From: an uncultured Gammaproteobacteria bacterium
GTDB lineage: Bacteria; Patescibacteriota; Patescibacteriia; UBA9934
DNA length: 28,550 bases
Reading direction: 5' to 3'
Assembly (NCBI GenBank): GCA_964415145.1
Contig: CAYPYH010000002.1
Span: 1 to 28,550 of the forward strand
Shown here: piece by piece, positions 1 to 22,434 of the stretch
Layout of the letters: every line of letters starts with the position of its first letter
Position numbering within the stretch: position 1 is the first letter of the stretch
Position numbers and translations under genes: made by a program
Notes under the pieces: generated by a model
What the model was told of the DNA's origin: nothing
The model's input: only the letters and a program-made list of their open reading frames with translations
Database searches by the model: none

Positions 1-142
1 TCGCCAGATCGGCCGGCTCGCCAGCGTCAGCAGCGGAGTGGTCCTGTGCGAGCGTGGGTGTGAACGCCACGCCGCCCTCGCGTGAGAACACGGGAACGGT
101 AAAGTGCTTGCCGCGATAGGATTCTTTTTGCTCGTGGTACAT
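1..142 (-). CDS. Partial hypothetical protein (5' end only; runs off the window), GC-rich
   Basis: ATG at 142 overlaps the TAA of the oxidoreductase (TAATG). GGAGG lies 4 nt upstream (147-151). The frame is open to base 1: MYHEQKESYRGKHFTVPVFSREGGVAFTPTLAQDHSAADAGEPADLA. Confidence 0.7.
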   Translation of the reverse strand, partial: MYHEQKESYRGKHFTVPVFSREGGVAFTPTLAQDHSAADAGEPADLA

Positions 143-1155
143 TATTCCTCCAATGTCTGCTTGCGCAGACGGTTGAGTCGAGACATGCACAGTACGTTAT
201 TGTACGCGGCATGGAAGTCGCTGAGGGGTTCGTCTCCCTCTTTGATCGAGCGCAACATGTCGCGCAGCTGTGCTTCGTAGGGGCTGCGGGCCACAAAGGG
301 ATGCAATTTGCCGTTTACGAAAAGTTGTCCCTCGCCCTTGGGACCAAGGGTCTCAATGCACTCAATAGTTCGATGTGAGGTGCGCATGGTGACTCGGCGC
401 GTTTGGCGCTTGATCACCGACACCTTGATACTGACGTCGGTTTTTTTATTGTCCCACTCGAGAGCGTACTGAAGGTCCACTTCTTCGTCGCGCTGACCAT
501 ACAGATCATTACGAATCTGCATGCGCGGGCGCTTCATGTGGTGTGCCGATACATTACTGATCCAGTAGGCGAGATCAATACAGTGTGTGCCAAGCGTGCT
601 CATGGCCCACCAGTCGGACGACTGTGAATTCATGCGCCATTCTTGCAAGGGCGCGATGTAGCTCCAATCGATCTCGATTGATTCGAGGCGCTCATTGAAC
701 CTGGGGTAGAGTGCTGCGCCCCGCATGTGCATGTGTGCGTCGTGATGGCGCAAGTGGTATCCCACGGCGAAATTGCCAGAGAATGATGCGTACGCCTTGG
801 AGAGCTTGTTGAACTCGCGCATATTTAGCGCTGCGGGCTTTTCCACGAGCACATGTTTTCCCGCCTTCATAAGCGAGATTGCGTGTGCCACGTGGTCGCG
901 GTCACGACTGGCTACGATCACGAAGTCGATCTCCGGATCGGCGGCGAGGCTCTGCACGTCGCCGTATAGGCGAGGAATGCCAAACTCATCGCACAATGCT
1001 TCGCCACGACCTTGGGTCTGACTCATTGCCGCAACAAGCTGGAGTTCGTCGATGCGCTTTATGGCAGGAATATGCCAATTGCGCACCACGTCGCCCGTGC
1101 CAATGACGGCCACGCGAAGCGGGGCGGTAGCCCTGTGAACAGCTCGGGAATTCAT
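142..1155 (-). CDS. Gfo/Idh/MocA family NAD(P)-dependent oxidoreductase
   Basis: Rossmann start VAVIGTGDVV, HVLVEKP motif, and GTHCID catalytic region. ATG 1155 (preceded by GGAAG) is preferred over TTG 1167. Confidence 0.88.
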   Translation of the reverse strand: MNSRAVHRATAPLRVAVIGTGDVVRNWHIPAIKRIDELQLVAAMSQTQGRGEALCDEFGIPRLYGDVQSLAADPEIDFVIVASRDRDHVAHAISLMKAGKHVLVEKPAALNMREFNKLSKAYASFSGNFAVGYHLRHHDAHMHMRGAALYPRFNERLESIEIDWSYIAPLQEWRMNSQSSDWWAMSTLGTHCIDLAYWISNVSAHHMKRPRMQIRNDLYGQRDEEVDLQYALEWDNKKTDVSIKVSVIKRQTRRVTMRTSHRTIECIETLGPKGEGQLFVNGKLHPFVARSPYEAQLRDMLRSIKEGDEPLSDFHAAYNNVLCMSRLNRLRKQTLEE

Positions 1156-1274
1156 GGGAACTTCCAATTGTGAAAGGACTTATGGAGGAACAGGGTCAAG
1201 ATACTCCCGTCTGTCAATTTTGTGTCAAATTCAAGTACATTTTGTAATACTTTATTCTATAAATAGTAATAATA

Positions 1275-1303
1275 TTGACTTTTGATGGGGAAAATGGTAG
1301 TTT
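1275..1303 (+). promoter_or_regulatory. Sigma70-type promoter for the TrmB-like gene
   Basis: TTGACT(1275-1280)-N17-TAGTTT(1298-1303) in an AT-rich intergenic region. Confidence 0.55.
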
Positions 1304-1327
1304 CAAACTTGTAATAATAAAGTACAT

Positions 1328-2056
1328 ATGAATACTTCAGAACTCACGCGTGCGGGACTTACCCTTCAAGAATCCGGGGTTTATAAAGCATTATTGCGTT
1401 TGAAAAAAGGAACGGTTTCGGATATCGCGCGCGTAAGTGGGCTCCATCGCCCAACGATCTACAAAGCTTTAGGTACACTTGTAGAAAAGCAATTACTTAG
1501 TGCCACGCTGCGTGGAAAACAAAAACTGTATATTGCGGAATCGCCTGAGCGATTGAAGGCATTATTTGAGCAATACGCACAAGGATTTTTAAATACCGTA
1601 ACTGAATTGCAAACAGATTTTGATCGCTCGAGTGAAAAACCTCAAATTAAATTCGTGGAAGGAATTGAGGGTATGCGGTCCGTATTAAAAGATAAAATGT
1701 ACCACCTCAAAAAAGGAAGTACATTTTATCGTTACGATGCATATGACGGAACGGTGCAGTATCAATCATTTCTTCCAAAAGATTATTCAGCTGTGCGGGA
1801 TGAAAAGGAATGGGAGCAGTTTGTAATTACGAACGCTACGCTACGAGGAAAGGAGTACAAAAAGCGTCTTAACTGTGCGTCTAAAGTATTCCCGCCCGAG
1901 TTTGATGCTTTTGAATATAATATCGGTCAAACGATTTACGGAAATACAGTAATCTTCGATGACTTTGATCAAAAAACGTCACTCGTGATTGAAAATCCTC
2001 GGTTTGCCGCATTCCAGAAAAAGATTTTTGAAATGCTTTACAGTAAACTTGGGTGA
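1328..2056 (+). CDS. TrmB-like winged-HTH transcriptional regulator
   Basis: N-terminal GLT..ESGVYKALL..GTVSDIARVSGLHRPTIYKAL..LVEKQL HTH, followed by a TrmB-type C-terminal domain. Confidence 0.82.
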   Translation: MNTSELTRAGLTLQESGVYKALLRLKKGTVSDIARVSGLHRPTIYKALGTLVEKQLLSATLRGKQKLYIAESPERLKALFEQYAQGFLNTVTELQTDFDRSSEKPQIKFVEGIEGMRSVLKDKMYHLKKGSTFYRYDAYDGTVQYQSFLPKDYSAVRDEKEWEQFVITNATLRGKEYKKRLNCASKVFPPEFDAFEYNIGQTIYGNTVIFDDFDQKTSLVIENPRFAAFQKKIFEMLYSKLG

Positions 2057-2820
2057 GTGAAGAAAACGGTTGGAGGACCGTCCGCTGTGTCTGTTGCGAC
2101 CGTATAGTCATGAAGCGAATTCATGTACAGTTCATAGTCATAGCGATGGTCTGCGCCATGTTTGGTATCGCCCGTATCTTGTACGATAAATTCCTGTTCT
2201 GAATCGTCATAGCCTTTAATGGTAGTCGCGTGATACGAAGACGCGGTTGGAATGAAGGGGATATTTTTATTTTTTAAATCAAAGCCGCGGTGAATGGCGA
2301 TCACGGGGCGACCTGCGTCTAGCTCTGCTTTGATCGCCTCGATGGTGGGATTGCGCACGAGCGTTGCTTCAAAAGAAGAATTTGTTTGCATGATCGCGAG
2401 CATGCGCTCTGCGTCCGAATTCGCATCTTCTCCATATTGTGCATTTTGCCAATCAAAAAGAATCTGCATGCTTGCTTTTGCCTCTTCTTTACTTACACTT
2501 GAAAGTCCTGCATAGAATTTTTCAACCATGGTGATTGCGGCTTCTTCGCATCCATTTTTCCAAGAACCGACCCACACACCATCGGGCGTTTCGGCGATAT
2601 AGGGCACCGAAAGATTTGCAGACGCATAGGCGGGTTTTTCTGATGCAGGGGTAACGATTTCTGCAATAGATTCAGTGACCGTGTCTATGAAGGTGGGATT
2701 TACACCTTCGGTTTCCGTTGGATTTGGTGCATGGCGATTGGCACGAATGGATGCAAAAACAATGCCTCCGCTTAAGACGAAGAAGAGTATGAGAAGGGCG
2801 GTTTTTTGTTTCATGATCAT
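2038..2820 (-). CDS. Exported C39-like (papain-fold) peptidase domain protein
   Basis: N-terminal TM/signal. LSVPYI..NGCEEAA (Cys), ELDAGRPVI, YHATTIKGYD (His/Asp) and DTG motifs typical of Peptidase_C39-like proteins. Confidence 0.75.
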   Translation of the reverse strand: MIMKQKTALLILFFVLSGGIVFASIRANRHAPNPTETEGVNPTFIDTVTESIAEIVTPASEKPAYASANLSVPYIAETPDGVWVGSWKNGCEEAAITMVEKFYAGLSSVSKEEAKASMQILFDWQNAQYGEDANSDAERMLAIMQTNSSFEATLVRNPTIEAIKAELDAGRPVIAIHRGFDLKNKNIPFIPTASSYHATTIKGYDDSEQEFIVQDTGDTKHGADHRYDYELYMNSLHDYTVATDTADGPPTVFFTHPSLL

Positions 2821-2845
2821 ATGGAATCATTCTATCACTAGAATC

Positions 2846-2868
2846 AAAAAACCGCCCCTAAGGGGCGG
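2846..2868 (-). terminator. Intrinsic terminator
   Basis: CCGCCCC-TAA-GGGGCGG stem (2852-2868) followed by a U-run on the minus strand, just after the 2879 stop. Confidence 0.7.
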
Positions 2869-2878
2869 CGATTATGAA

Positions 2879-3403
2879 TTAAGGTTGCACAACCTCGGTA
2901 TCGAGGTTGAAGTCAGGGTTGCCGTCTCGCCCAAGTCCTTTGTGACCAAATGCACCACGGGGTCCGTCATGATGTTCGCCTCGCGGGCCGCCAATGTGAT
3001 CTTTCATCTCTTCCATGTGGGCTTTTATCGCTTCATGTCGCGCATCTTCATCGAGTGAAGAGAGGCTTTCAAAGAATGCTTTTTCATCTATATCTTTTGC
3101 ACTAATTGCATCCGCTTGCGCCTGTGTGAGTTTTCCGTCCACTACAGCTTTCGCAAGCATTTCTTGTTTATGTGTTTCATGGAGTGCGCGTTGTTCCTCG
3201 ATTTGCTCATCTATCACTTGTTGTACGTCGGATTCACTTAAGTTGAATCGTTCGGCGATCGCTTCTACTAGGCCGGACAGATGCCCTTGCTCAAAGGAAG
3301 GTTGGGCTGCAAGTGTTGTACTGGCACCGATCGCCACCACTCCAAGGCCCGCAATAAGAGTGGACGCTGCAAGTAATCGTCGTGAGTATCTTATTTTTTT
3401 CAT
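2879..3403 (-). CDS. Secreted helical hypothetical protein with His/Gly/Arg-rich C-terminus
   Basis: Signal peptide MKKIRYSRRLLAASTLIAGLGVVAIGASTTLAA, LVEAIAERFNL..DV and AV.DGKLTQAQADAI motifs. ATG 3403 is preferred over TTG 3439. Confidence 0.75.
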   Translation of the reverse strand: MKKIRYSRRLLAASTLIAGLGVVAIGASTTLAAQPSFEQGHLSGLVEAIAERFNLSESDVQQVIDEQIEEQRALHETHKQEMLAKAVVDGKLTQAQADAISAKDIDEKAFFESLSSLDEDARHEAIKAHMEEMKDHIGGPRGEHHDGPRGAFGHKGLGRDGNPDFNLDTEVVQP

Positions 3404-3550
3404 GTATGAATGGTTAGATGGATTAGAAGTTCTAAGCAATAAAGGTGAGTCTAAAAAGGTGATATTGAGAGTCGCGTTTCTCCAAATAACCCTTCATAAA
3501 GACTCTGCGCCACGGAACACATTTAGGGGCGCTTCCCACATTGCATCGTT

Positions 3551-3584
3551 ACCGTAGCAAAGGTCCCATGAAGTAATTATGAAG
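3551..3584 (-). promoter_or_regulatory. Candidate OmpR-family direct-repeat box plus -10 (copy 2)
   Basis: Minus strand CTTCAT-N5-CTTCAT-N11-TACGGT, the same geometry as the site upstream of the response regulator. Confidence 0.45.
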
Positions 3585-4629
3585 CCCTGTGGATAGGTAG
3601 AGAAATGGTAACAATAGTGCCTTTTTCTGGTTCACTTTGCATGGCTACGTGTCCACCAAGTGCGCTTACAATGGATTCCACAATGGAAAGTCCAAGCCCG
3701 CTACCACCACTTTGGCGCGAGCGACTTTTGTCACTGCGATAAAAGCGTTTGAATACACTTTTGATTTCTTCTTTTGCAATGCCGATTCCGGTGTCCGCAA
3801 TACGAATTTTAACCTGCGTGTCGTGTGTATTGAGCGTGATGTTCACGCTTCCATTTTCTTTATTATACAAAATGGCGTTTTGGATTACATTCGTGAATGC
3901 GTGAGCGACAAGTTCCGCACGTGGCGCCATTATGAATAATGGTTCTTGCGTGTGTGACTGTAGAGTGAGGGTGATATGTGCTTTTTGAGCAATAGGGGAA
4001 ATCCGTTCAACGGTATTCGAGAGTACATCGGTTAGATTTACAGGTATCCACGTTTCATTTGTGGGCAATGTGTCGCGGTGTAATTGAGAAACCGTTAATA
4101 AATCTTGCACAAGATTCCGCATACGCGCCACTTCTTCTAAGTGACTTTCTATTTGCTGGCGCATTTCAGATGATGGGGCAGAGTCGCGTTCATTTTCTAA
4201 ATTTGTTTGCAAAATCGCAAGTGGCGTGCGCAATTCATGCGAAGCATCGCTCAAGAAGCGTCTTTGTTTATGATAAGCCTTGCGAATGGGCTGCAAGGTG
4301 GAGCCGGCAAACCAATAACTTAAAATACCGGTAAGAAGGAGGAGGGTAAGATTTACGGTAAGCACGGTTTCTACTAAATCTTGCCGAACCTCAATAGCAT
4401 TTGGAGGAGGGGGAATACGGTCTGGATGTTCTTGGGTGGCGTGCTGAAAGCGTTCGTATCGGTCGGTGATTCGTTGTGAGAATACGAAACGTGTAATGCT
4501 TCCAGAAAAAAGAAGAATGAGCGCTACAATTACAACGTATATGCTTGTAAGGATAACGCGCGATTGCTTAAAGTATAAATCAAATGACTCGGTATCCTTT
4601 GCCCCAAACAGTTTGAATGCGTTTTGCAT
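3577..4629 (-). CDS. Two-component sensor histidine kinase (HisKA + HATPase_c)
   Basis: Two TM segments, H-box FLSDASHELRTPL, N-box NVIQNAILYN, G1 IADTGIGI, F-box FKRFYR, G2 GSGLGLSIV. Confidence 0.95.
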   Translation of the reverse strand: MQNAFKLFGAKDTESFDLYFKQSRVILTSIYVVIVALILLFSGSITRFVFSQRITDRYERFQHATQEHPDRIPPPPNAIEVRQDLVETVLTVNLTLLLLTGILSYWFAGSTLQPIRKAYHKQRRFLSDASHELRTPLAILQTNLENERDSAPSSEMRQQIESHLEEVARMRNLVQDLLTVSQLHRDTLPTNETWIPVNLTDVLSNTVERISPIAQKAHITLTLQSHTQEPLFIMAPRAELVAHAFTNVIQNAILYNKENGSVNITLNTHDTQVKIRIADTGIGIAKEEIKSVFKRFYRSDKSRSRQSGGSGLGLSIVESIVSALGGHVAMQSEPEKGTIVTISLPIHRAS

Positions 4630-5242
4630 ATTCTTTCGGTAGTTTCTTACGAAGATTTTTCAGGTGGACATCGACAACATTACTAAAGGAATCATGGAAT
4701 CGGTCCCATACATGGGTAAGAATATCTTCGCGGGTGACGACGGCACCCTTATTGCGTAAGAAATATTCCAGTAATCCGTATTCGCGCAAGGTGAGTTCGA
4801 CGGGCTTTTTGCTGATGGTGACGATTTGTGAACGAGTGTCGAGTTGTAGATCTTTGAGCGTCAAAATATCGCCGGATAATTGAGGGACGCGGCGCATGAG
4901 CGTGCGTATGCGCGCCACAAGTTCTTCGAATGAAAAAGGTTTCACGAGATAATCGTCGGCGCCACTATCCAAGCCTTCCACGGTGTCTTCTACAGTGTCG
5001 CGTGCGGTCAAGAATAAGATGGGCGTATGAATACCGTGTGCGCGTAGATTGCGACAAACCGTTACGCCGTCGCGTATGGGTAGCATGCGGTCCAAAATGA
5101 TGACATCGTATTCATTCATGCGCGCCAAATTTTCTCCTTCTTCACCGTCGTAGGCAAAATCAACCGCATACCCGCGGTTTTGAAGGCCTGTTACCAGGCC
5201 TTTGTTTAGCTTTACTTCATCTTCAACAATGAGGATCTTCAT
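4580..5242 (-). CDS. OmpR/PhoB-family response regulator
   Basis: MKILIVEDE, IILDRMLP (phospho-Asp), LFLTARD, GADDYLVKPF, and winged helix NVVDVHLKNLRKKL..TVWGKGY. Confidence 0.96.
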   Translation of the reverse strand: MKILIVEDEVKLNKGLVTGLQNRGYAVDFAYDGEEGENLARMNEYDVIILDRMLPIRDGVTVCRNLRAHGIHTPILFLTARDTVEDTVEGLDSGADDYLVKPFSFEELVARIRTLMRRVPQLSGDILTLKDLQLDTRSQIVTISKKPVELTLREYGLLEYFLRNKGAVVTREDILTHVWDRFHDSFSNVVDVHLKNLRKKLPKEYAKRIQTVWGKGYRVI

Positions 5243-5249
5243 ACCTAGC

Positions 5250-5285
5250 ACCTTACTTCATTATATGTGAAGAGAATATGAAGAG
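5250..5285 (-). promoter_or_regulatory. Candidate OmpR-family direct-repeat box plus -10 (copy 1)
   Basis: Minus strand CTTCAT-N5-CTTCAC-N11-TAAGGT-N7-ATG. A TATAAT (5260-5265) also lies in the spacer. Confidence 0.5.
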
Positions 5286-5286
5286 G

Positions 5287-5709
5287 TTATTTGAGGACGA
5301 TCAAGAATGCGCCAAGAGCAACAAGTGCGGCGCCCGTAAGAGAGCGTGCGCTGAGTGATTCACCCAAGAATAGCGCCGCTAATAAAACAACGAATACCAG
5401 ACTTGTACGGTCTATTGCGGCTACGCGTGTGGCGTCGCCTGTTTTGAGGGCTACAAAGTAAAAGAGCCATGAAAGGGCGCCGCTGACCGAGGCAAGTAAT
5501 AAGAAGGTCCAATCTTTTTGATTAAGATCTGAAAAAGAAAATCCTTTCCATGCACCACTCATGGCGGTGATAGAAATAAGAAAGAAAGCCATAATTGTGC
5601 CGCGTAGTGTTGTGGCGAGTGTTGGATCAATATCTTTCAATCCCATCTTTCCAAAAATGGCGACACCTGCGGCGGTAATAGATGAAAGCGCAGCGAAAAT
5701 AATCCACAT
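5287..5709 (-). CDS. EamA/DMT family transporter (single domain)
   Basis: AIFGKMGLKDIDPTLATTLR, SGALSWLFYFVALKTG.A.RVAAIDRTSLVFVVLLAALFLGE; about 5 TM segments. Confidence 0.9.
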   Translation of the reverse strand: MWIIFAALSSITAAGVAIFGKMGLKDIDPTLATTLRGTIMAFFLISITAMSGAWKGFSFSDLNQKDWTFLLLASVSGALSWLFYFVALKTGDATRVAAIDRTSLVFVVLLAALFLGESLSARSLTGAALVALGAFLIVLK

Positions 5710-5723
5710 ATACAGTAAGTGTA

Positions 5724-6302
5724 TCAGTATGGCGCCTTAGTAGTCGATTTAAGAGCTGCGGTGAGCGTATTGCAAAGAGTCTTTGCGAGGGATCCGTAAA
5801 AAACTATTGCGACAGCAAAAAGATACATAACACATAAGGCACCCATAATGCCACCTCGTGTATTTCCTGGAGCAATGGGTTCAATGGCGAGTACGATTAT
5901 TCCTATAAAAAGTGTGAGCGTGGGGAGCGTGAGATAGAGACCAAGAATCCGCAAGAGGCTTTGGGGTTTTGTATTTGTTTTGCGTAGCGTGCGTGTCCCG
6001 TGTGATATGAGTTGGAAGAGGAGGCTGACAATAAGATGTGCGCGCAGCATGGTGGACCAAAAAAGTGGGTCATTTGAGGTAATACTTACAGCGTCTAGGC
6101 CTAAGAGGGTAAAAATTTGTTGATACAAACCTTGGTCGAATGATGCATGTGAGAAGAGGACGGTTACCCAGACAAAGAGCAGGAGTACACTGATCCCTTG
6201 AACAAAGATGGCCGGAGTAAATTGAGTGAATGCAAAATAGTCGATGAGAAATATAAGAAGAGAACGTAGAATTTGGGATATGCGCACAGAGATATATTTC
6301 AT
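5724..6302 (-). CDS. Hypothetical multi-pass membrane protein
   Basis: About 192-aa ORF with 4-5 hydrophobic segments and no recognisable family motif. ATG 6302 is preferred over TTG 6320. Confidence 0.65.
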   Translation of the reverse strand: MKYISVRISQILRSLLIFLIDYFAFTQFTPAIFVQGISVLLLFVWVTVLFSHASFDQGLYQQIFTLLGLDAVSITSNDPLFWSTMLRAHLIVSLLFQLISHGTRTLRKTNTKPQSLLRILGLYLTLPTLTLFIGIIVLAIEPIAPGNTRGGIMGALCVMYLFAVAIVFYGSLAKTLCNTLTAALKSTTKAPY

Positions 6303-12168: not shown

Positions 12169-12264
12169 ACCGATGGCTATTGTATCAGACTTTGCGATAA
12201 TGACTGACCTGTGACGGCTTGACAGATGGGGTATTTTGAGGTATCGGTATGAATAGGAGCGATC

Positions 12265-12912
12265 ATGAACAGACTTCAGTTCTTTACAGGGATTCCGGCG
12301 ATGCCTCAGTGGCAGCGCCAACGGATTCATTGGGCATACGACGATGCCAAGAAATGGCACGCGGATCAGATGCGCGACGGAGGCGAGCGGTACTTCGAGC
12401 ATGTGCGTCGGGCAGCTCAGGTTCTGATCGACCTGGGGTATGTCGGGTACGAACTGATCGTTGTGCTGATCCTGCACGATCTGCTCGAAGATACCAACTA
12501 TGCGCCGTCGAAGCTGGAGCAGACCTTTGGTCCCGAGATCGCGCGCAAGGTCCTGACCCTGTCCAAGACCTACGGATTGGAAGACCCGCTTACGGGATTC
12601 CTGGTACGACTTCCGAAGCGTTCCAAGGGAGACTACTTCGAGGGCATCCGTGGTGGTGGTAGGGATGTCGTGCTCGCCAAAGGGGCGGATCGTTACGACA
12701 ACCTGACCGATCTGATCGATCCGCCCGAAGGGTCCGAGTGGTACTCCTCGCACCGTAGAGCGAAGAAAGTGGAAGAGACGCGCGAATGGATCATTCCCCT
12801 GGTCGGACAGCATGACCAGCGCTTAGCTCAGATGCTGCGCCATCGCTGTGATCTGATCGGGGCGAGAGTCGGAATGACCATCGAATTGACTTCGGACACG
12901 AATCCCGATTAG
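12265..12912 (+). CDS. Stand-alone RelA/SpoT-type HD domain protein (small alarmone hydrolase/Mesh1-like), GC-rich
   Basis: AKKWH..QMRDGGERYFEHV, ILHDLLEDT, V..LSK and KGADRYDNL motifs. AGGAG at 12255-12259. Confidence 0.8.
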   Translation: MNRLQFFTGIPAMPQWQRQRIHWAYDDAKKWHADQMRDGGERYFEHVRRAAQVLIDLGYVGYELIVVLILHDLLEDTNYAPSKLEQTFGPEIARKVLTLSKTYGLEDPLTGFLVRLPKRSKGDYFEGIRGGGRDVVLAKGADRYDNLTDLIDPPEGSEWYSSHRRAKKVEETREWIIPLVGQHDQRLAQMLRHRCDLIGARVGMTIELTSDTNPD

Positions 12913-12959
12913 CGCCTTGTTCTGCATCACATTCTTACCGGGCATCTGCTCGGTTCTTT

Positions 12960-13400
12960 TTATTCTAATCGAAGCGCTTTTGCGGGCGCAGCTATTGCCT
13001 GCGGATTTGTTTTCCACGCGTCAGAGATATCCGCATATAGTTCTAGCTCATTTTCGTCTGGATCAAGAATGTAAATCCCGTGGGTGATTGTGTGGTCCGT
13101 TGCACCAAGAATACGCACTCCTTTTTCGACAAGTTCCTTATAGACATCGCGTAATGCTTGCGCGCCATCACCAATTTTAAATCCTATATGGTAGAGTCCT
13201 GGTTCTGGGTGATGTACTTCGCGCAAAGATCCACCTATTTCAATAAGTAGTAATTCATGATGTGTTCTGCCAGAAGAAAACATAGCGCCACCACGAAAAT
13301 CAGCAACTTGCGTAAAGCCAAGTACGTCGCGATAAAATGCGGCAGAAATTTCTACACTTCTTACGTACAGTACGATATGTCCCAGTTCTTTAATTTGCAT
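12960..13400 (-). CDS. VOC/glyoxalase family protein (catechol dioxygenase-like)
   Basis: LGHIVLYV..SAAFYRDVLGF, HHELLL, GLYHIGF, IYILDPDENELELY. ATG 13400 is preferred. Confidence 0.88.
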   Translation of the reverse strand: MQIKELGHIVLYVRSVEISAAFYRDVLGFTQVADFRGGAMFSSGRTHHELLLIEIGGSLREVHHPEPGLYHIGFKIGDGAQALRDVYKELVEKGVRILGATDHTITHGIYILDPDENELELYADISDAWKTNPQAIAAPAKALRLE

Positions 13401-14748: not shown

Positions 14749-14782
14749 AAATTGGATTTGGCTTTAGGTTAGCATGGTTTGT

Positions 14783-14815
14783 AAAAAAAGTCCCCAGCAC
14801 GCATGGGTGTGGGGA
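14783..14815 (-). terminator. Intrinsic terminator of the NT5C gene
   Basis: TCCCCA-g-CAC-loop-GTG-TGGGGA stem (14791-14815) with an A7 run at 14783-14789, which is a U-tail on the minus strand. Confidence 0.65.
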
Positions 14816-14828
14816 GGTAATCACTAAG

Positions 14829-15431
14829 CTATTGCTCGAGGAGGGGAATGACCACGCGCTTCCAGTCCCTCCAGTTGTTCATGCGGTCTTGGAAGGAGTC
14901 GGCAGCGGCCTGGTTCCATTCGTGCATGAAGAGCACCTGGCTCCACCGAGGCTCGAGGCCCTTGGGGGCCTTCGCGGCATGCGGATTGTCGTCGATCAGC
15001 ACATCACCGTCGACTCGGAACTTCTCGCTCGCGATGATCGTGCGGTTGAGCCAGCTTTTCCCAAGGTTCCATTCCACCCACTGGAGCTTCTCGCTCGCAC
15101 AGGTGGGGCTCTTGTGCAGAGGCGCGGTCAAAAGCGCAACGTCGTATCCGCGCTTGAGCATGCCTTCCAGTGCGCTGAGTGCACCCGGGATTATGGGAAG
15201 ATTGGCGAAGAACCCAGGGCCACAGGTGAGCGCCTGAACTTGATCGGCCACTGCGTCGCCATGAGCGACACGGTAAGACTCGACAATGCTCCAAGACTCC
15301 ATCTGACTCATTGGCAAGTGGAGCTCTGGAGGGAGGACTTCCAGGGTGCGCGCATAGAATGCTCGCTTGTAGTTTGCAAGAACATCGTCCATGTCGACCA
15401 GGATTCGGCGAGGGGATCTTTGAGGACTCAT
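14829..15431 (-). CDS. 5'(3')-deoxyribonucleotidase, NT5C/HAD family, GC-rich
   Basis: ILVDMDDVLA (DxD), GFFANLPIIPGA, ASEK..WV...LG, DVLIDDNP, and W...LF...WN. GGAG 6 nt upstream. Confidence 0.88.
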   Translation of the reverse strand: MSPQRSPRRILVDMDDVLANYKRAFYARTLEVLPPELHLPMSQMESWSIVESYRVAHGDAVADQVQALTCGPGFFANLPIIPGALSALEGMLKRGYDVALLTAPLHKSPTCASEKLQWVEWNLGKSWLNRTIIASEKFRVDGDVLIDDNPHAAKAPKGLEPRWSQVLFMHEWNQAAADSFQDRMNNWRDWKRVVIPLLEQ

Positions 15432-15524
15432 GAGTTACTCCGGGGGAAAGGGAAGACTCGCATGTAAGCAATATTCTTGGATTATGTCAATCCCTCAGCT
15501 CTCGTTTAATAATCTTGCCAATAT

Positions 15525-15556: not shown

Positions 15557-15630
15557 TGGCAGGGGCGGCCAGAATCGAACTGACAACATAGGTTTTGGAG
15601 ACCCGTGTGATACCACTTCACCACGCCCCT
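15557..15630 (-). tRNA. trnW: tRNA-Trp (anticodon CCA), CCA end encoded
   Basis: Cloverleaf AGGGGCG/CGCCCCT, D-stem GTGA/TCAC, loop CTCCAAA, T-arm GTCAG-TTCGATT-CTGGC, and G-CCA end; 74 nt. Confidence 0.96.
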
Positions 15631-15720: not shown

Positions 15721-18700
15721 ATGCCGCACAAAAAGATCATCTACAGTATTTTAGGGTGTTTTGTAGTAGGAATTATTTCCGTAACTTTTGTTCGTGCATT
15801 TATTGCGACAGATTTTAGTTTTACGGGTACTGGACATACATCAGCCTTTGCGGGAGACTCAAATATTCTTTTGGCGGATTTTACGGGACCATCGCCAGCC
15901 ACGGATACGATATTGCTAGACGGTGCGGCGGCAGATCCGGTTGCGGGAGATCCATTAAGTTCTTTTGCGGCAAGTATTGTTTTTTTAGATACAGACGGTG
16001 CGGCTGGTTTTGGGGGAGGGGAGCCAGTGATTAGTTCGGCTAATGCTGCACTTACGTCTGCGGACACGGTGCTTACGTCGAGCACGATTACTGTTTTGAA
16101 TGCTTTTCCGACCATTGAATCGGGGCAGACTCTGTATGGATTCGTTGATACAGATACCGACACGATTCTTGACGGTAATGAAGATATTGTTCACCAGGTG
16201 ATTAGCGGAAATGCGGAAACATTAACGAGTGGAGATGCTCTGCGCATTGTAGCCCCAAGCGATGACATGTTTTATGTTGCAGATTCTGGAACGTCAACGT
16301 ACGACGCGCTTACACCAAATGCGATTTTGCATTATCTGGGGCCCAGTGAAAATCCATACGCGGTTGTACAGGCAGGTACTTTAAATTTCCATCCGGCTAC
16401 ATTAGCGGACAATATTTGCGTGGAGGATTCAGATTCATCGGGCACTATTAGTAGTGGTGATGATTTTTGGCGCGATCTTAACGGCACGGACTGCACTTCT
16501 TTTGATACAGGAATTGACGTTATTGTTAATGGTGAAGCGGGTATTATGGATTTAATTTTTTATGAATTAAACGGATATGAGCCGAGTTCGGGATATGGTC
16601 CTGTAACACCCGGATACATTGATGGTAATGGAAATGGGCTATATGACTGCACGCGTACTTCGTGCGAGGCGTTTGTGGTGGCTGCTGGTAATGTAGGGGT
16701 AGATGGAGTATTTACTGGGGGATTAGTGGCTAATCCTTCACCGGTTCTTGTGGACGGTGTTGGAGCCATTGCTACAGATTGGGTTGATGACCCAACGCTC
16801 ATGAACGCCTATGATTTATCTACAGTGACCATTGGGGGTGAAACGCGTTTTGCGTATGTGGATTCAGACGCGGACACTATATATGACAGTGCTGAAGACA
16901 TGGTGGAATTGGTAAAATCGGGGAATGCGGAAACATTTTCTACAGGGGATCTTTTCTTAAATATGACCAATGCGGGTTGGTTTGCAGACATAAACAACAA
17001 TGATACATATTCTGTAGTGACCGATATTATGATCGGTTCCTTGGATGCAAATTTGAATGCGGGCGCGCTTAATGGGACGGGTGTAGATGAAGTCGTGATT
17101 CCGTCTAATAATGCAACAGATCTTTCAACATTCGATGTGGACGATGTGTATTTTGATGCAGATGCTAATGTGGCGTATACCGATGGTGAAGATATCGTGG
17201 CCGATGTCGATGCATCCGGTTATTTCAATGCGGACGATCTGATGAGTATTTCTTTTAGCAATACGGTGTCCGATTACCCACTTGAAAATGCAGACTTAGA
17301 GCATTTATATGTGTATAAAAAGGCAGGGGCAGATTGTGCCGGATCGGGTACAGACTCTTTGCTGGGAGATTTAGCTGCGAGTCCATTCTTTAGTACAGCG
17401 ATCACGATTACCGATTCCTTGTTCACTGCGCAGACTTCTTATTGTGTGTATGCAGATATTGCAGCAGGAGCACGCGCTGGAAGATACGTATCGCTTGCTA
17501 TTCCACAAAATGGAGCAACGTTTTTGGGGGCGGTAGATTCTCCTTCGGATGCATTATTTAGTATGGGAAATAGCAGTTCGTACACGAGTGTCTCGCGTCT
17601 TATGTCTGCCACTATGGTTCCTGGCGACGTTGCTGCTAATGCGACAACGACATATACGACCGTGTTTACCACTTCAGCCGACATTACAACAGGGGACGAC
17701 ATTAATATCGTGTTCCCTTCGGCATACGATGTTACTGGCGCAAGCGTTGTATGTACGGATGATGGAGGGGCTTCCGCAGGAACATCGTCAATTAACGGGC
17801 AAATTGTTTCGCGTAATCTTTCTGCAGATATCGCGGCGGGATCATTGGTTTCATGCGTGGTTTCTGGCGTGGTGAATCCAGAAACGGCTGGTGCATATAG
17901 TGCGTTTATTGTGAGTACGGTGCGCCAGGCGATCTACGACAGCATACGTGCAGATGTTGATCTTACATTCTCAGCGGTTACCATTACGGCGTCCACCATA
18001 CGGCATAATCGTCAGCAAATAGTAGACCCTATTGTGGCGCCCGTTGTAACGATTACAACTCCGGCTAATGGAGTATTTATTCAAGGAGCGGTTATGATTA
18101 CGTGGGAGACGACAGGTACTTCACCAGGATTTGCTAATATCACATACACGGCGAATGGGATTGATTATGCGATCGCGCGCAATATTAGTGACTCGGGTCA
18201 TTATCTTTGGAGTATTCCAAGTCGTCTCATAGGGCAGGCGGTCGACATTGAAGTTGCACTTACTGATCTTTCCAGCGTTCAAACAGATGATTTGGTTTCG
18301 GTGCTCATTGGGGAAGATGGGATAGAGGAAGAAATTATTTCTGAAGAGGATCTAGATTCGAAGTGGTATATGCCAGATATTGGAACCAGATTGGTGAAGA
18401 TTCCTGAATCTCCAATTGTCTATTATGTAGGGTATGACCATCGTTTACTACGACCATTCCTGACAGAAGATATTTTCTTTTCATGGCGTTCGAATTTTGA
18501 CAAAGTTCGTACCCCAGAGCCGGTGGAATTAGCGCAATTTCCAATGGGGGCACCAATGCCTCCCATGCCGGGCACCTACTTCATAAAGTCGCCAACAAGT
18601 CCTAAGGTATATGTATTGGAACCTATTAAAACAAATAAAACGCAACCGATTTTACACTGGATTGCGTCGGAAGAAGTAGCGGAGCTGTATTTTGGGGGCA

Positions 18701-18810
18701 ACTGGAGCGCGCGCGTGCTCGATGTTCCTGCCGAAGTAATTGATCTTTCACCAAAGGGATATGATTTACTTGGCACCGAAGAGGAACCGTGGTTCATTGC
18801 GATTTACTAG
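15721..18810 (+). CDS. Large acidic secreted surface protein with Dx[DN]xDG-like Ca-binding motifs and the shared C-terminal domain
   Basis: N-terminal signal/TM and at least 8 Dx[DN]x[DNS]-type loops (e.g. DSDSSGTISSGDD, DGNGNGLYD, DVDASGYFNADD). Extended -10 TGtTATAAT at 15683-15691. Confidence 0.85.
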   Translation: MPHKKIIYSILGCFVVGIISVTFVRAFIATDFSFTGTGHTSAFAGDSNILLADFTGPSPATDTILLDGAAADPVAGDPLSSFAASIVFLDTDGAAGFGGGEPVISSANAALTSADTVLTSSTITVLNAFPTIESGQTLYGFVDTDTDTILDGNEDIVHQVISGNAETLTSGDALRIVAPSDDMFYVADSGTSTYDALTPNAILHYLGPSENPYAVVQAGTLNFHPATLADNICVEDSDSSGTISSGDDFWRDLNGTDCTSFDTGIDVIVNGEAGIMDLIFYELNGYEPSSGYGPVTPGYIDGNGNGLYDCTRTSCEAFVVAAGNVGVDGVFTGGLVANPSPVLVDGVGAIATDWVDDPTLMNAYDLSTVTIGGETRFAYVDSDADTIYDSAEDMVELVKSGNAETFSTGDLFLNMTNAGWFADINNNDTYSVVTDIMIGSLDANLNAGALNGTGVDEVVIPSNNATDLSTFDVDDVYFDADANVAYTDGEDIVADVDASGYFNADDLMSISFSNTVSDYPLENADLEHLYVYKKAGADCAGSGTDSLLGDLAASPFFSTAITITDSLFTAQTSYCVYADIAAGARAGRYVSLAIPQNGATFLGAVDSPSDALFSMGNSSSYTSVSRLMSATMVPGDVAANATTTYTTVFTTSADITTGDDINIVFPSAYDVTGASVVCTDDGGASAGTSSINGQIVSRNLSADIAAGSLVSCVVSGVVNPETAGAYSAFIVSTVRQAIYDSIRADVDLTFSAVTITASTIRHNRQQIVDPIVAPVVTITTPANGVFIQGAVMITWETTGTSPGFANITYTANGIDYAIARNISDSGHYLWSIPSRLIGQAVDIEVALTDLSSVQTDDLVSVLIGEDGIEEEIISEEDLDSKWYMPDIGTRLVKIPESPIVYYVGYDHRLLRPFLTEDIFFSWRSNFDKVRTPEPVELAQFPMGAPMPPMPGTYFIKSPTSPKVYVLEPIKTNKTQPILHWIASEEVAELYFGGNWSARVLDVPAEVIDLSPKGYDLLGTEEEPWFIAIY

Positions 18811-18823
18811 AAGAGGAAATAAT

Positions 18824-18865
18824 AAAAAGGGCCCGCCTTCGGCTGTAATGCCTTAGGCGGGCTTT
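18824..18865. terminator. Bidirectional hairpin terminator between convergent genes
   Basis: AAAGGGCCCGCCT...AGGCGGGCTTT inverted repeat with an inner GGC/GCC pair. Confidence 0.65.
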
Positions 18866-18873
18866 CGCGTGTC

Positions 18874-20664
18874 TTAGAGCGAGATCAGGCTCGGAAAGTG
18901 ACCTTCGTGGTCACGTTCGACCGTCGTCACGTCGCCATTTGTCCAGTGGACTTCGAGCGAGGTGACATGGGGAGGAATGGACTTTACCGGAGGACTGAAT
19001 CCAGCGGTACCGCCACTCGAGCTGATCACGGTCGCCTGGCGCGTCTCGCCAGCGATCATCAGGACCATGCTTCCGTAGGCACCATAGGGACCATTGCGGA
19101 ATGCCACCTCCTGCGTCCCTGCGGCACAAGTGCCGTTGATCAGGGCGCGCATGTCGGTCAGACCGACCGGAAGTGGAACAAGATCCACGCAGGAATCACC
19201 ATTGATGTCGACGGGTCCGATCAGACCACGTTCCTGCACATTGGCGTCCAGTGCGTCGTCGTGCACTCGTTCCCAGGTCTCGCCGTTGTCGGAGAACCGG
19301 TAGAGGTGCAGCTGTTGCGGCCACTGGGTCCAGGGTACGGCATGCTCGAGGTCGCGAACTTCCTCGTAAGCGTGTTCGTATCCTTCAATGTACACCACGT
19401 AGTCTTCGAAGGCATTGACCGCCCAACTCACATTGTGGCGAGTGGGCCCCGCAAGGGTCTGCATGCTTTCAGGAAGCATCCATGAGCTTCCGAAACAGGC
19501 GACGCTTTCGGTGGGTCCAGCAACGCGGCTTGCGGTGCAGACATCGTCGGAACCTACGTCGCTCGAAGCGACTTCCAGGACGCCGTCCTTGTTCGAGTCG
19601 AAAAGCGTGAAGCCCATGGGACTTCCACCAAGACCAGGGCAGGAGACCTGCGTCCAGTTCATGATGTCGCCTCGCCAGCACGAGGTGCCCCCGTTCTCGG
19701 GGTCATTGCGCTCAGAGCCGTCATAGGCGACCAAGAACAGGTTCTGTGTTCCGTCCTCACGCGGAGCGGTGAACACACCCGCATTGGTGTCGATGTCGGG
19801 CGGGAGCCAGTCTGGCTCGTACACCAGTCGTTCGTTCTCCCAAGTGAAGACGGTGGGCGGACATGCGTAGCCACCAAACACCACTTCGGGCACCAGGTCA
19901 CGATTGAGGTCCGCGAACTGCACGTTCATGGGGATGCAGGGCAGTGGGATCGCATCGCTCAGACCAACGTCTTCGGTCTTATCGACCCAGTGTGGGAACA
20001 TGTCCTCTTCGTCCCACTCTTGCGAGTAGAAGTAGAGCTTGAGACCGGCACGAATCTTGTCGGGGTACAAGCCCGCGACCATGCTCATGTAGTTCTCGTC
20101 CATGCCCTCGATGCTCACGATCAGTAGGTCGGGCTTGTCGTCGCCGTTGATGTACTCGAGGGCGAGTGCGGTGACCTGATCGGGCACATGCGGAAGGTTG
20201 AGCTCAGCGGGGCAGGAGTCGTAGACGCCGTCGTCGTTGACACACAGGTAGGCCGGATTCGCACCACCACTTTGCGTGAGCATCGTGGCGGGGAATTCCG
20301 TGAACACCATGCCGTCGCGCTTGCCGCCGGCCAGATTGCCAAGGGCGGCTTGCATCCAGGGCTCGGCGTCGGGAGTCTGCTGTCCCTCTTCGAGGGGTGG
20401 CATCTCGGGAATCGAGTAGCCGTCGGCCACGCGTCGATCGATGGCGCAATTGCTCCATTCGCCTGGGGCTGCCGGACAAGGGAACGTGTACGCGCGTTCG
20501 CGCGGGAGCACTTCGGGATTTTCGACTTCGTGGGGCAGAAAGTCTGGAACGAAGTCGTGCACATTGATCGTGCCCGACGTCGTGTTCTGGTCACTGTCCG
20601 GATTCGAGCAGGCGCTCAGCACGAGGCTGAACAGTAGGGCGATCAGAAGGAACGGGTTTCGCAT
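18874..20664 (-). CDS. FG-GAP/VCBS-repeat lipoprotein with ASPIC/UnbV-like C-terminus (CRTAC1-like), GC-rich
   Basis: Lipobox MRNPFLLIALLFSLVLSA-C. Repeats INGDDKPDL, DLNRDLVPEV, DSNKDGVLEV and DINGDSCVDL. C-terminal G..V.....Q....SSSGG...LEVHWTNG. GGAGG 5 nt before ATG 20664. Confidence 0.78.
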   Translation of the reverse strand: MRNPFLLIALLFSLVLSACSNPDSDQNTTSGTINVHDFVPDFLPHEVENPEVLPRERAYTFPCPAAPGEWSNCAIDRRVADGYSIPEMPPLEEGQQTPDAEPWMQAALGNLAGGKRDGMVFTEFPATMLTQSGGANPAYLCVNDDGVYDSCPAELNLPHVPDQVTALALEYINGDDKPDLLIVSIEGMDENYMSMVAGLYPDKIRAGLKLYFYSQEWDEEDMFPHWVDKTEDVGLSDAIPLPCIPMNVQFADLNRDLVPEVVFGGYACPPTVFTWENERLVYEPDWLPPDIDTNAGVFTAPREDGTQNLFLVAYDGSERNDPENGGTSCWRGDIMNWTQVSCPGLGGSPMGFTLFDSNKDGVLEVASSDVGSDDVCTASRVAGPTESVACFGSSWMLPESMQTLAGPTRHNVSWAVNAFEDYVVYIEGYEHAYEEVRDLEHAVPWTQWPQQLHLYRFSDNGETWERVHDDALDANVQERGLIGPVDINGDSCVDLVPLPVGLTDMRALINGTCAAGTQEVAFRNGPYGAYGSMVLMIAGETRQATVISSSGGTAGFSPPVKSIPPHVTSLEVHWTNGDVTTVERDHEGHFPSLISL

Positions 20665-20730
20665 GGGGCCCTCCAAGGGCGGGAATGGATCTGTTTGGGG
20701 AAGGACAAAGAGGGTTCTTGCGAACAGCCT

Positions 20731-20759
20731 AAACTATACCATTTTTCCACTTTTGTCAA
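20731..20759 (-). promoter_or_regulatory. Sigma70 promoter of the FG-GAP lipoprotein
   Basis: TTGACA-N17-TAGTTT (or N15-TATAGT with TGn). Confidence 0.6.
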
Positions 20760-20782
20760 TAGAGGGGTCTTTTTATTGAAAT

Positions 20783-20846
20783 AAAAAAAAGAGGCTGACC
20801 ACACGCTTGTACGCGTGGGTCAGCAGGGTCGCGCAGCGCGCGACCC
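20783..20846 (-). terminator. Double-hairpin terminator of the CotH-like gene
   Basis: Directly after the TAA: GGGTCGCGC-gct-GCGCGACCC, then GCTGACC-CACGC-loop-GCGTG-t-GGTCAGC, then a U8 run. Confidence 0.75.
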
Positions 20847-22343
20847 TTAGGGGGCTTGGATCACGATGTTGGTGTCGCCCGTGTCCACGACCAGATCGCT
20901 GTCGAGCACGAGGTCCGTGTCGAAGTCCATGCCCGTGTCGCCGTCGCCGAGTACCCACGGCGCTCGGTATTGCTCCAGCTCCTCGCGGGCATTCGCTGCA
21001 CGCGTGGAGTAGAATTCGTACAAGATGTCGTAGCGCTCGTCGTCAGGTGTTCGCCATGCGCCGTCGCCACCGTCATTCCCCCACGGGTACACGATGGCCT
21101 GGAGCTCGTCGCGCAACGGGGCGATGATCGTGTTCGCGGCGTCGAGCGCCTCGAGCTCACTGATCAGTTCCTCACATCGCGCCACGGTCTGCGCCCAGCA
21201 CGACTCGTCGTACTGGCAGCCCATCGACATTGCGTTGTCGCCGTAGAGCGGGACGTAGGTGTAGGCGCCGTCCCACGCGACTCCGCCCGAGATGTCGGTG
21301 GAGTACGGGTGGTAGCGGAACTTCCCGTCCTGCCCTTCGGTCAGCAGGATGTTGTTCATGTTGTGCAGCGCGTCGTCACCGATCCACAGCAGCCACTCGC
21401 TGCACTGGAAAGTGCGATAGGCGGGCCAGTCGAAGTAGGGCGCGGTCGCCTCCTCGAATTCCTGGCTGCCCATGCTGGCGGTCACGACGTCGGCGAACTC
21501 GTAGAGTCGCGTCTCGTCGCATTCGCTGAGCTCGCACTGCGAAGCGAAGCTGTTCGCCGCCTCGTTGGTGATGTCGGCCCAGACCGCTTCCCAGATGTTG
21601 TTGCAGCCTCCGCCGAAGTAGTCTGCACGGTCGCCCTTGCAGAAGTCCTTCTTGTACTTCTCGATCCCGATGTAGGGGAGGAGGAGATCGGAGTTCTGCC
21701 AACCACTACCTCCCACGAGGATGTAGGTGGTCTTGGGAACCTGGTAGCCGAAGGCATCGTAGACCATGAGCGCCGAGCGTTCACCCAGCATCGACCCCAC
21801 CTGGCCATTGTTGAGGCGCAGGCGGGAGAATCCACCCAGGAGCTGATCCTCGGTGACTTCGTCCACCTTCAGGTTGAAGTTGGGGATGGTGTCGGTGGCC
21901 CACGGGTAGCCGCTGGACTGTCCGGCCAGCTTGGCCTCGATCTGACCGTAGTCCGTGCTGCGCCCATCGGGGAGCTGCGCGTACAGGTGGTCGATCAGGA
22001 TGGTCGGGGTCTCGTCGTTCACGGTGTAGACGGGGCCGAACCACTCCCCGTTCTGCCAGTCCTCGTTCATGGTCTCGATGGTCTCCGGGGAGGCGTCGAT
22101 CCACAGCACGAGGCCGGGGGTCTCGAACAGGTCGAAGTCCAGGTCCGCCACGGCCGTGTTCGGGGTGATCGGAGCGTGGTACTCCATGTCCGTCTCGCCC
22201 GGGTCGGCGTCCGTGTCGTCCTCCACAGTGTACACATTGGTGACGGTGTCACCTTCGTGCGTGTGGAAGTGTTCGTTCGTCACTTCCGTGGTGCATCCAC
22301 CGGCCAGAAGGAGACCTGTCAGCATCAGTCGAATTCGGTTCAC
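20847..22343 (-). CDS. CotH-like kinase domain lipoprotein, GC-rich
   Basis: Lipobox (V/M)NRIRLMLTGLLLAGG-C. GQSS....PNFNLK, RLRLNN...LGERSA, VPKTTY, IGDDALHNMNN and PYSTD match the CotH kinase layout. GGAGG 4 nt before GTG 22343; the track start at 22367 is an alternative. Confidence 0.72.
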   Translation of the reverse strand: MNRIRLMLTGLLLAGGCTTEVTNEHFHTHEGDTVTNVYTVEDDTDADPGETDMEYHAPITPNTAVADLDFDLFETPGLVLWIDASPETIETMNEDWQNGEWFGPVYTVNDETPTILIDHLYAQLPDGRSTDYGQIEAKLAGQSSGYPWATDTIPNFNLKVDEVTEDQLLGGFSRLRLNNGQVGSMLGERSALMVYDAFGYQVPKTTYILVGGSGWQNSDLLLPYIGIEKYKKDFCKGDRADYFGGGCNNIWEAVWADITNEAANSFASQCELSECDETRLYEFADVVTASMGSQEFEEATAPYFDWPAYRTFQCSEWLLWIGDDALHNMNNILLTEGQDGKFRYHPYSTDISGGVAWDGAYTYVPLYGDNAMSMGCQYDESCWAQTVARCEELISELEALDAANTIIAPLRDELQAIVYPWGNDGGDGAWRTPDDERYDILYEFYSTRAANAREELEQYRAPWVLGDGDTGMDFDTDLVLDSDLVVDTGDTNIVIQAP

Positions 22344-22372
22344 TTGCCCTCCAAGTTGATTGGGCATGGGCG

Positions 22373-22401
22373 AAGCTACCGTATTTATTGTGTTTTGTCA
22401 A
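22373..22401 (-). promoter_or_regulatory. Sigma70 promoter of the CotH-like gene
   Basis: TTGACA(22401-22396)-N17-TAGCTT(22378-22373). Confidence 0.65.
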
Positions 22402-22402
22402 T

Positions 22403-22434
22403 AGAAAGAGCCCGGCATATGCCGGGCTCTTTCT
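22403..22434. terminator. Perfect 32-bp palindrome; likely terminator of the 396-aa gene
   Basis: AGAAAGAGCCCGGCAT|ATGCCGGGCTCTTTCT, 2 nt after the stop at 22437. Confidence 0.7.

Follow-up and report, generated by a model that had tools for sequence, protein, structure and literature searches.

Putatively acquired GC-rich genes as single promoter-gene-terminator units in a small Patescibacteria genome

A phage moron is an extra gene between resident genes that has its own promoter and terminator and deviates in guanine-plus-cytosine (GC) content; the concept, which is said to stem from Juhala and Hendrix, is defined in phages and prophages. Chromosomal integron arrays can have near-identical attC repeats, integrase-less clusters being known as CALIN, and in promoter propagation 'putative mobile promoters' stand upstream of non-homologous genes. 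For Patescibacteria, with their tiny streamlined genomes and few visible mobile elements, gene gain is an open question. In aquifer Patescibacteria, as much as 13% of the genome length has been attributed to horizontal gene transfer, with Patescibacteria as both donor and recipient in 83% of the single-gene transfers (PMC12455944). Here, we investigate five GC-rich units in the first 28,550 bases of contig C2, a stretch referred to as the window, from a tiny-genome, groundwater-type, Uhrbacteria-like member of this phylum. The metagenome-type host genome comprises 873,900 bp in 113 contigs, is 95.6% complete and has a mean GC of 47.6%; its other contigs are cited by their C numbers. The five blocks are probably horizontally acquired accessory genes, organized as autonomous moron-like units among about 90 such islets and brought in by natural transformation.

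The five blocks have a GC content of 57-63%, compared with about 45% in their surroundings. A sliding-GC profile gave 52-60% for positions 1-1200, 58% for 12200-12900, 57-61% for 14790-15450, 58-64% for 18830-20750 and 60-66% for 20780-22400, with 39-50% over the remaining window. A two-state hidden Markov model (HMM) set the borders of the GC-rich state at 1-1148, 12295-12872, 14792-15353 and 18829-22381. The unit genes have a GC of 0.56-0.63 and a GC at third codon positions (GC3) of 0.67-0.86, against 0.41-0.48 and 0.31-0.49 for native genes, and by GC3 the blocks are protein-coding. These three measures confirm the GC-rich blocks claimed in a preliminary description of this DNA, whose four G+C counts over 60 nt (42, 41, 34 and 26) were exact on recount.

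Unit 1 is an oxidoreductase operon, units 2 and 3 encode a small HD hydrolase and a deoxynucleotidase, and units 4 and 5 each encode a surface lipoprotein. All follow one plan: behind a canonical strong promoter comes a GC-rich leader that bears a strong Shine-Dalgarno site, then the coding sequence, at about 60% GC, and finally an intrinsic terminator. A perfect TTGACA, which the earlier reading had placed before every unit start, is indeed found there, 34-83 nt upstream, and the Shine-Dalgarno sites it listed were read from the sequence as GGAAG (unit 1), AGGAG (unit 2), GGAG (unit 3) and GGAGGG (units 4 and 5). The promoters were found with explicit patterns, as a generic promoter scan missed them due to its -10 rule. 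Terminators were judged by fold energy and by z-score against shuffled controls. The strong hairpins reported for three units are real, but their number is higher: all four complete units end in a hairpin with a U-tract (-41.4, -24.0, -14.8 and -11.0 kcal/mol; z from -7.7 to -2.5). By motif search and folding, an own promoter and an own terminator are predicted around a single gene. Unit 1, previously taken as one gene, contains a second GC-rich gene that overlaps the oxidoreductase stop (TAATG) and leaves the contig. The HD domain of unit 2 is of the (p)ppGpp-hydrolase type, suggesting a role as a small alarmone hydrolase, and the true start of unit 5 is likely the GTG at 22343, directly after TTGGAGGGC.

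The preliminary description had treated this pattern as one of the window. It covers 11.8% of the genome, recurs across the order and has been outlined for Patescibacteria (PMC12455944). More specifically, the two-state HMM delimited 92 GC-rich segments that amount to 102.7 kb, with 61.0% GC compared with 45.8% elsewhere. Gene GC is bimodal, with averages of 45.6% and a GC3 of 0.42 for native genes and of 60.8% and a GC3 of 0.75 for island genes. In statistics that rest on crude in-house calls of open reading frames, a perfect TTGACA lies upstream of 34 of 108 GC-rich genes compared with 29 of 683 native ones (odds ratio 10, p = 1e-15). Where the gap measures 60 nt or more, TTGACA-N16-18-TAnnnT precedes 22 of 81 GC-rich and 15 of 251 native genes (odds ratio 5.9). 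Terminators of the hairpin-plus-T4 type were found behind 43 of 107 GC-rich and 139 of 679 native genes (odds ratio 2.6, p = 2e-5), and the median gaps upstream and downstream are 105 and 101 nt for GC-rich genes versus 27 and 20 nt for native ones. There is almost no paralogy among the GC-rich genes. Strain-variable islands at contig ends were considered and rejected (22 of 226 ends versus 11.8% expected, p = 0.41), and so were RNA genes as the cause of the GC-rich segments, with just RNase P RNA and tRNAs found.

The promoters of the units are native to the lineage, leaving foreign bodies behind a host-type promoter. The canonical promoter of the order reads ATTGACAAAA-N5-TTTTT-TGnTAnnnT, and counterparts of a 30-nt promoter core, 85-97% identical, are present in 94 of 150 genomes of the order. 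Units 4 and 5 both carry CTATTGACAAAA, at 20751-20762 and 22393-22404, which agrees with the identical promoter sequence noted before in two units, and they also share the TTGGAGGGC ribosome-binding context. Seven genomic copies of CTATTGACAAAA align to CTATTGACAAAA-N5-aTTTTTaTGgTAnnnT. The same promoter grammar is found upstream of unit 5 homologues in relatives, GC-rich ones included. In relatives, a GC jump follows the promoter in 7 of 33 occurrences versus 5.9% of background windows, and five or six of the 11 best promoter copies precede such a jump. Spacers upstream of GC-rich genes have 46% GC and native spacers 44%; the TTGACA spacer of unit 1 has 37-42% and is common to the divergent TrmB gene. 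As the promoter core is order-wide and lies in a host-like spacer, the promoters were not imported from an unrelated donor, and the proposed arrival of complete expression units from such a donor does not hold.

Two further motifs near promoters were tried and rejected as marks of insertion. A 22-nt motif in units 1 and 2 has only those two genomic copies, and the rough chance of such a match between two of 228 TTGACA sites is about 0.2, which is why we did not treat it as a recombination site. The perfect or near-perfect 18-nt palindrome TTGGCTAATATTAGCTAA lies just upstream of several promoters, shows no link with island borders and could serve as an operator.

The five units were compared with 5 congeneric species and 150 genomes of the order and, for unit 4, with a further 350 genomes of the phylum and 301 of Myxococcota. 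None of the units was found in any of the five congeneric species, and matches in the order number 0, 2, 2, 3 and 10, depending on the unit. For unit 1, the two real matches in the order are 36% and 32% identical, the best named homologue reaches 34% (Asanoa, Actinomycetota), and nothing on plasmids exceeds 27% identity. Same-size orthologues of unit 2 are present in 3 of the 150 genomes (34-39%), its remaining matches being the HD domain of a native RelA/SpoT-type protein of about 500 amino acids (aa). Unit 3 has matches in 2 of the 150 genomes (35-39%) and shares 28-33% identity with Microbacterium jumbo phage nucleotidases; viral contigs yielded no relatives of units 3, 4 and 5. Unit 4 has just two homologues in 5.8 billion proteins, at 54% and 42% identity.

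Unit 5 has matches in 10 of the 150 genomes of the order and in none of the five of the genus, with a best match of 54% among the 5.8 billion proteins, and its family is common to Uhrbacteria-like genomes and Myxococcota (Polyangiaceae, Sorangium). A tree was built for this unit only, as a quick tree with support from the Shimodaira-Hasegawa-like approximate likelihood ratio test (SH-aLRT) alone. In it, the window copy joins copies of another family (f2) and a Myxococcota subclade in a clade with 99% support, and the copies of its own family (f1) fall elsewhere. The unit 5 homologue is again a GC-rich island in four relatives of moderate GC. By composition and patchy spread, and for unit 5 also by its incongruent tree, the five genes appear to be horizontally acquired. 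Composition, spread and the enrichment of promoters and terminators thereby support the idea, put forward before, of repeated acquisition of foreign genes, each as one autonomous promoter-gene-terminator unit between native genes.

To characterize the source of the DNA, we compared tetranucleotide usage and codon-position GC. Two random halves of the islands correlate at r = 0.967, compared with 0.60 for islands and native DNA. The island signature reaches 0.89 with loci of metagenome-assembled Myxococcota, 0.87 with a Rhodococcus replicon and 0.72-0.74 with alpha- and betaproteobacterial replicons. With two GC-rich genomes of the order, whose GC range is 41-64%, it reaches 0.73-0.79; these two correlate with each other at 0.92. 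The codon-position GC of the islands fits a source genome of 57-68% GC, by regression coefficients said to be those of Lawrence and Ochman from 1997. Taken as a set, the islands have a common tetranucleotide signature, compatible with a source of about 60-65% GC. On C54 (1557-3809), a GC-rich 750-aa gene is 42-46% identical to the C-terminal half of a native protein of about 1400 aa (C7, 7965-12236). The latter is order-wide and kept in most genomes of the family, and neither has a Pfam family. Due to this homology to an order-wide protein, some islands have a Patescibacteria ancestry. The within-phylum exchange already published fits a GC-rich accessory gene pool that circulates in Patescibacteria.

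The route of entry was investigated through mobile elements, borders and uptake genes. The window showed neither an integrase nor a transposase or target duplication, as had been stated, and no transposase of the two commonest families (rve and DDE) was found in the genome. PF00589 finds one gene genome-wide, split over two contig ends (C64, 4086-4913; C24, 11492-11806). Its fragments score 114 and 113 bits as XerC and XerD and 92 bits as integron integrase, all below the cut-offs. This split gene has GC-rich segments to either side, no more than about 1 kb away. The longest border repeats of the five units measure 6-8 nt, equal to shuffled controls, and no direct or inverted repeats pairing the borders, such as dif-like XerC/XerD sites, rise above chance, although a degenerate dif site could escape. 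Sites of the attC type, reported as lacking, were looked for by eye only, and none was recognized; the 3' hairpins of units 2 to 5 are mutually unrelated. A tRNA adjoins unit 3 only, at 126 nt. The borders in the window share only a promoter and terminator grammar without a recombination site, and the sole tyrosine recombinase is XerC/D-like, which leaves the cassette-like route formerly considered for the window unsupported. Natural transformation, the other route considered there, has the needed genes, as ComEC, DprA and two PilB/PilT-type ATPases are present, and from this gene content it is the likeliest route.

Repeated modules were found elsewhere in the genome. A tandem array of three GC-rich genes without mutual homology is found on C48 (locus L131; 2470-4900, minus strand), with the identical core GTATTGACAAAACCGCGTTTTT before every gene. 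At every stop codon begins an element of about 110 nt with two hairpins; its copies are 81-92% identical, and in one stem a G-C pair is replaced by A-T in a compensatory way. Constant in the array is the stretch between stop codon and -10 box, and the variable part is exactly the 5' untranslated region (5'UTR) plus the coding sequence. No R'/R'' cores were recognizable in the repeat by eye, and the element was not found in the genome outside its array. Furthermore, promoter modules of 60-80 nt, 81-90% identical, precede unrelated GC-rich genes on four contigs, with the consensus GCTTrTATTGGC..AAACGCGGTTTTGTATTGACAAAACCGCGTTTTTATGnTATA and a -35 box inside a hairpin whose stem co-varies between copies. 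A terminator-like hairpin follows unrelated GC-rich genes at C33 4144-4197, C85 2360-2421 and C95 706-768, with 45 nt at 100% identity between two of these loci. In one GC-rich operon on C13 (3768-3829 and 4619-4681), a 63-nt intercistronic hairpin, 92% identical between its copies, stands directly before the Shine-Dalgarno sites of two unrelated genes. Similar upstream regions are over-represented in GC-rich genes (14 of 41 pairs, about 1.5 being expected).

How the islets arose and how they keep their composition can be read in several ways. If they were acquired, as we consider probable, the DNA would enter by natural transformation (ComEC/DprA/type IV pilus), and illegitimate or short-homology recombination would insert it into intergenic spacers, since these would be the sole places tolerated in a genome that is 92% coding. 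Only insertions that have a canonical promoter, or land behind one, would be expressed and kept. The proximate donors would most likely be other Patescibacteria of a gene-exchange network with GC-rich genes, with bacteria akin to Myxococcota or Actinomycetota probably among the ultimate sources. Several observations weigh against this account. No donor lineage was identified among homologues that are at best 34-54% identical; these are far too distant to demonstrate a recent transfer, yet the GC looks unameliorated. A donor inside the order is not supported, because the signature is nearer to Myxococcota and Rhodococcus than to the GC-rich genomes of the order. Unit 4 has no match in the 150 genomes of the order or the 350 of the phylum, nor in five named Myxococcota genomes or the 301 of that phylum. 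A Pfam family is missing in 14 of 20 GC-rich genes sampled outside the window, which would be unusual for well-studied phyla. An empty site was sought in the genus, in relatives and in metagenome contigs. The congener G002 shares only the PIF1 helicase near the locus, the regions around tRNA-Trp in eight relatives are without synteny, and in metagenome contigs one flank protein has no match and the helicase leads to four loci at 59-76% identity with other neighbours. Congeners are about 68% identical in their best-conserved gene and lack synteny. With no empty site found, insertion is inferred and not seen, and the argument for transformation is drawn from gene content.

Alternatively, the genes could be long-standing residents, old and fast-evolving members of the pangenome whose high GC is maintained, for example by constant re-exchange in the group, by GC-biased gene conversion or by mRNA-level selection. 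In five genomes of moderate GC, the copies of the unit 5 family are 35-47% mutually identical and GC-rich throughout (GC3 0.67-0.94), promoters and leaders are wholly lineage-typical, most of the sampled GC-rich genes belong to no Pfam family, and the C54 gene is a diverged copy of an order-wide protein. We nevertheless regard residence as unlikely, although it deserves to be kept in mind: none of the units was found in the five congeners, and the codon-position GC resembles equilibrium in a genome of about 62% GC and not a shift of synonymous sites only. We also know of no process that holds a GC3 of 0.75-0.9 in a genome with a GC3 of 0.42. The C48 array offers a lead to a possible cassette-like mechanism, in which coding sequences would be captured between a conserved promoter module and a terminator module in a site-specific or module-guided manner, be it integron-like, Xer-module-like or new. 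The promoter modules shared by C37, C48, C73 and C108, the terminator family of C33, C85 and C95 and the excess of similar upstream regions point the same way. We consider such a dedicated mechanism improbable, because the C48 element is confined to its own array and the window units are without such elements, sharing just 12 nt (units 4 and 5) or the two-copy 22-nt motif (units 1 and 2). In addition, there is no integron integrase, attC-type R''/R' cores were not seen by eye, the borders share nothing beyond chance, and the units lie on both strands. A looser version, which we hold to be improbable as well, is suggested by the constant part of the C48 array running from the stop codon to the -10 box: Patescibacteria might capture a foreign 5'UTR plus coding sequence into ready-made slots, exactly between canonical promoter and hairpin terminator, by recombination at conserved promoter and terminator modules, with no dedicated integrase. 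The islets would then record one habitual DNA source, possibly the host of an episymbiont, as about 90 of them share one signature (split-half r = 0.97). Finally, chimeric joins or contamination of the bin from a co-assembled high-GC organism could be suspected in an assembly of 113 contigs with 55-nt overlaps, strain-level variants at contig ends and some short contigs that are GC-rich throughout. However, native DNA flanks every block of the window on both sides within one contig, and the block borders match promoter, start, stop and terminator, with promoters of host type. Islands are also not enriched at contig ends, and independently assembled relatives show the same pattern. Ninety precise, gene-sized chimeras are not credible, and we give an artefact next to no weight.

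The features of the window and the repeated motifs elsewhere are compiled in Table 1.

Table 1. Coordinates of the features of the five units, their native neighbours and motifs on other contigs. Positions without a contig name refer to the window.
Feature	Position	Strand	Details
Unit 1, second gene, 5' part	1..141	-	ATG overlaps the oxidoreductase stop, TAATG at 140-144; runs off the contig end; GC of 1-300 = 0.60
Unit 1, Gfo/Idh/MocA-family NAD-dependent oxidoreductase, 341 aa	142..1167	-	PF01408, E = 5e-25; GC 0.56, GC3 0.67
Unit 1, two TTGACA boxes	1212..1228	-	reverse complement at 1212-1217 and 1223-1228; Shine-Dalgarno GGAAG
Unit 2, promoter region and AGGAG Shine-Dalgarno	12219..12264	+	TTGACA at 12219-12224
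Unit 2, stand-alone HD_4 protein, 215 aa	12265..12912	+	PF13328, E = 3e-9
Unit 2, terminator	12937..12964	+	7-bp stem and TCTTTTTATT; -11 kcal/mol, z = -2.5
Unit 3, terminator, hairpin and U7	14778..14828	-	-14.8 kcal/mol, z = -2.6
Unit 3, NT5C-type 5'(3')-deoxyribonucleotidase, 200 aa	14829..15431	-	PF06941, E = 2e-16; GC 0.59, GC3 0.72
Unit 3, leader with GGAG, and TTGACA	15432..15490	-	TTGACA reverse complement at 15485-15490, 59 nt upstream of the start
Native tRNA-Trp(CCA)	15557..15630	-	126 nt from unit 3; sole tRNA adjoining any unit
Unit 4, terminator	18823..18873	-	-24 kcal/mol, z = -4.2; also serves the convergent native gene ending at 18810
Unit 4, FG-GAP/ASPIC-like lipoprotein, 600 aa	18874..20676	-	PF13517; lipobox LSAC; GC 0.60, GC3 0.73
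Unit 4, leader (TTGGAGGGC Shine-Dalgarno) and promoter CTATTGACAAAA...TGGTATAGT	20677..20762	-	read from the sequence
Unit 5, double-hairpin terminator, then U8	20783..20846	-	-41.4 kcal/mol, z = -7.7
Unit 5, CotH-like lipoprotein	20847..22367	-	PF08757 weak here, present in homologues; GC 0.63, GC3 0.86
Unit 5, promoter CTATTGACAAAA	22368..22404	-	abuts the terminator hairpin of the upstream native gene
14-bp hairpin terminator of native gene 22437-23627	22403..22434	-	-28.5 kcal/mol; directly upstream of the unit 5 promoter
TTGGCTAATATTAGCTAA copies	C5 10340-10357; C21 6696-6713; C61 4361-4378; C19 2708-2725; C55 632-649
Promoter modules	C48 4812-4888; C37 1883-1966; C108 400-474 and 874-926; C73 1481-1520

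The native genes of the window encode TrmB, a two-component system, a PIF1 helicase, an EVE protein, EngB, LexA, a degenerate MetK-like protein and cyclophilin, as well as large exported proteins without a Pfam family, a set that is typical for Patescibacteria. In units 4 and 5, the Shine-Dalgarno site sits within a GCCC...GGAGGGC hairpin (20677-20730 and 22344-22380). Several leaders behind the canonical promoter genome-wide also start with CCTCC or CCCTCCGCAAA, often so, which are complementary to the GGAGG Shine-Dalgarno site; such pairing may provide translational control by sequestration of the site. By a crude pattern, lipobox signal peptides occur in 7 of 106 GC-rich and 1 of 674 native genes. 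The islets at C67 329-3810 and C44 2939-6458 include an NAD synthase (CN_hydrolase and NAD_synthase), a nicotinate phosphoribosyltransferase, a MoxR-type AAA ATPase and an SPFH protein, and C51 3091-4464 encodes a protein with a MopE-type metal-binding motif. Regarding the assembly, many contig ends have exact 55-nt overlaps at 100% identity, which correspond to the assembly k-mer. At other ends the overlaps are 60-230 nt long and 85-98% identical, which points to more than one strain in the bin.

For the question of gene gain in Patescibacteria, this genome offers a quantified case, in which an eighth of the DNA would consist of gene-sized imports wired to the strongest promoter type of the lineage and to a terminator. 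Classical lipoproteins are over-represented among these imports, and an insertion enzyme is not in sight. Their shared composition could guide the search for the DNA source, perhaps the host of the presumed episymbiont, and the canonical promoter may be a useful part for genetics in Patescibacteria. The repeated promoter and terminator modules are a side lead worth a closer look.

Among known systems, a classical genomic island differs from the units of the window, of which only unit 3 lies near a tRNA, with no flanking repeats above chance and no integrase in the window. Xer-dependent modules of the pdif type differ as well, as no paired dif-like sites were seen at unit borders. Integron cassettes resemble the units in being gene-sized with unrelated functions, and the C48 array has the single orientation and a repeated structured element after each stop. 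They differ in that IntI is absent here from a genome as complete as this one, no attC cores were recognized by eye and each unit has its own promoter; the window units in particular lie on both strands (unit 2 opposite) and share no 3' element. Promoter propagation likewise places near-identical segments of 30-80 nt before unrelated genes in one genome, but here such segments go with genes of foreign composition and, in one array, also with a terminator element that is repeated. Phage morons share the own promoter and terminator and the deviating GC between resident genes; here, however, the units lie in a cellular chromosome, with a host-type promoter and no phage genes nearby, their neighbours being a two-component system, PIF1 helicase, EngB, LexA and a tRNA.

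The closest parallel comes from the same phylum, with transfers up to 13% of genome length there and 11.8% here (PMC12455944). As in our genome, these transfers are single genes and not large islands, are old or diverged, come mostly from Patescibacteria donors and have competence as a proposed way in. That study does not describe autonomous promoter-gene-terminator units, promoter enrichment, a common GC-rich signature or repeated modules, and the word 'promoter' is absent from its text. The general phenomenon has already been published and is a real, ordinary feature of Patescibacteria, not a new cassette machine. To this, the genome contributes statistics at genome scale, a promoter shared across the lineage, a uniform island signature and the C48 array.

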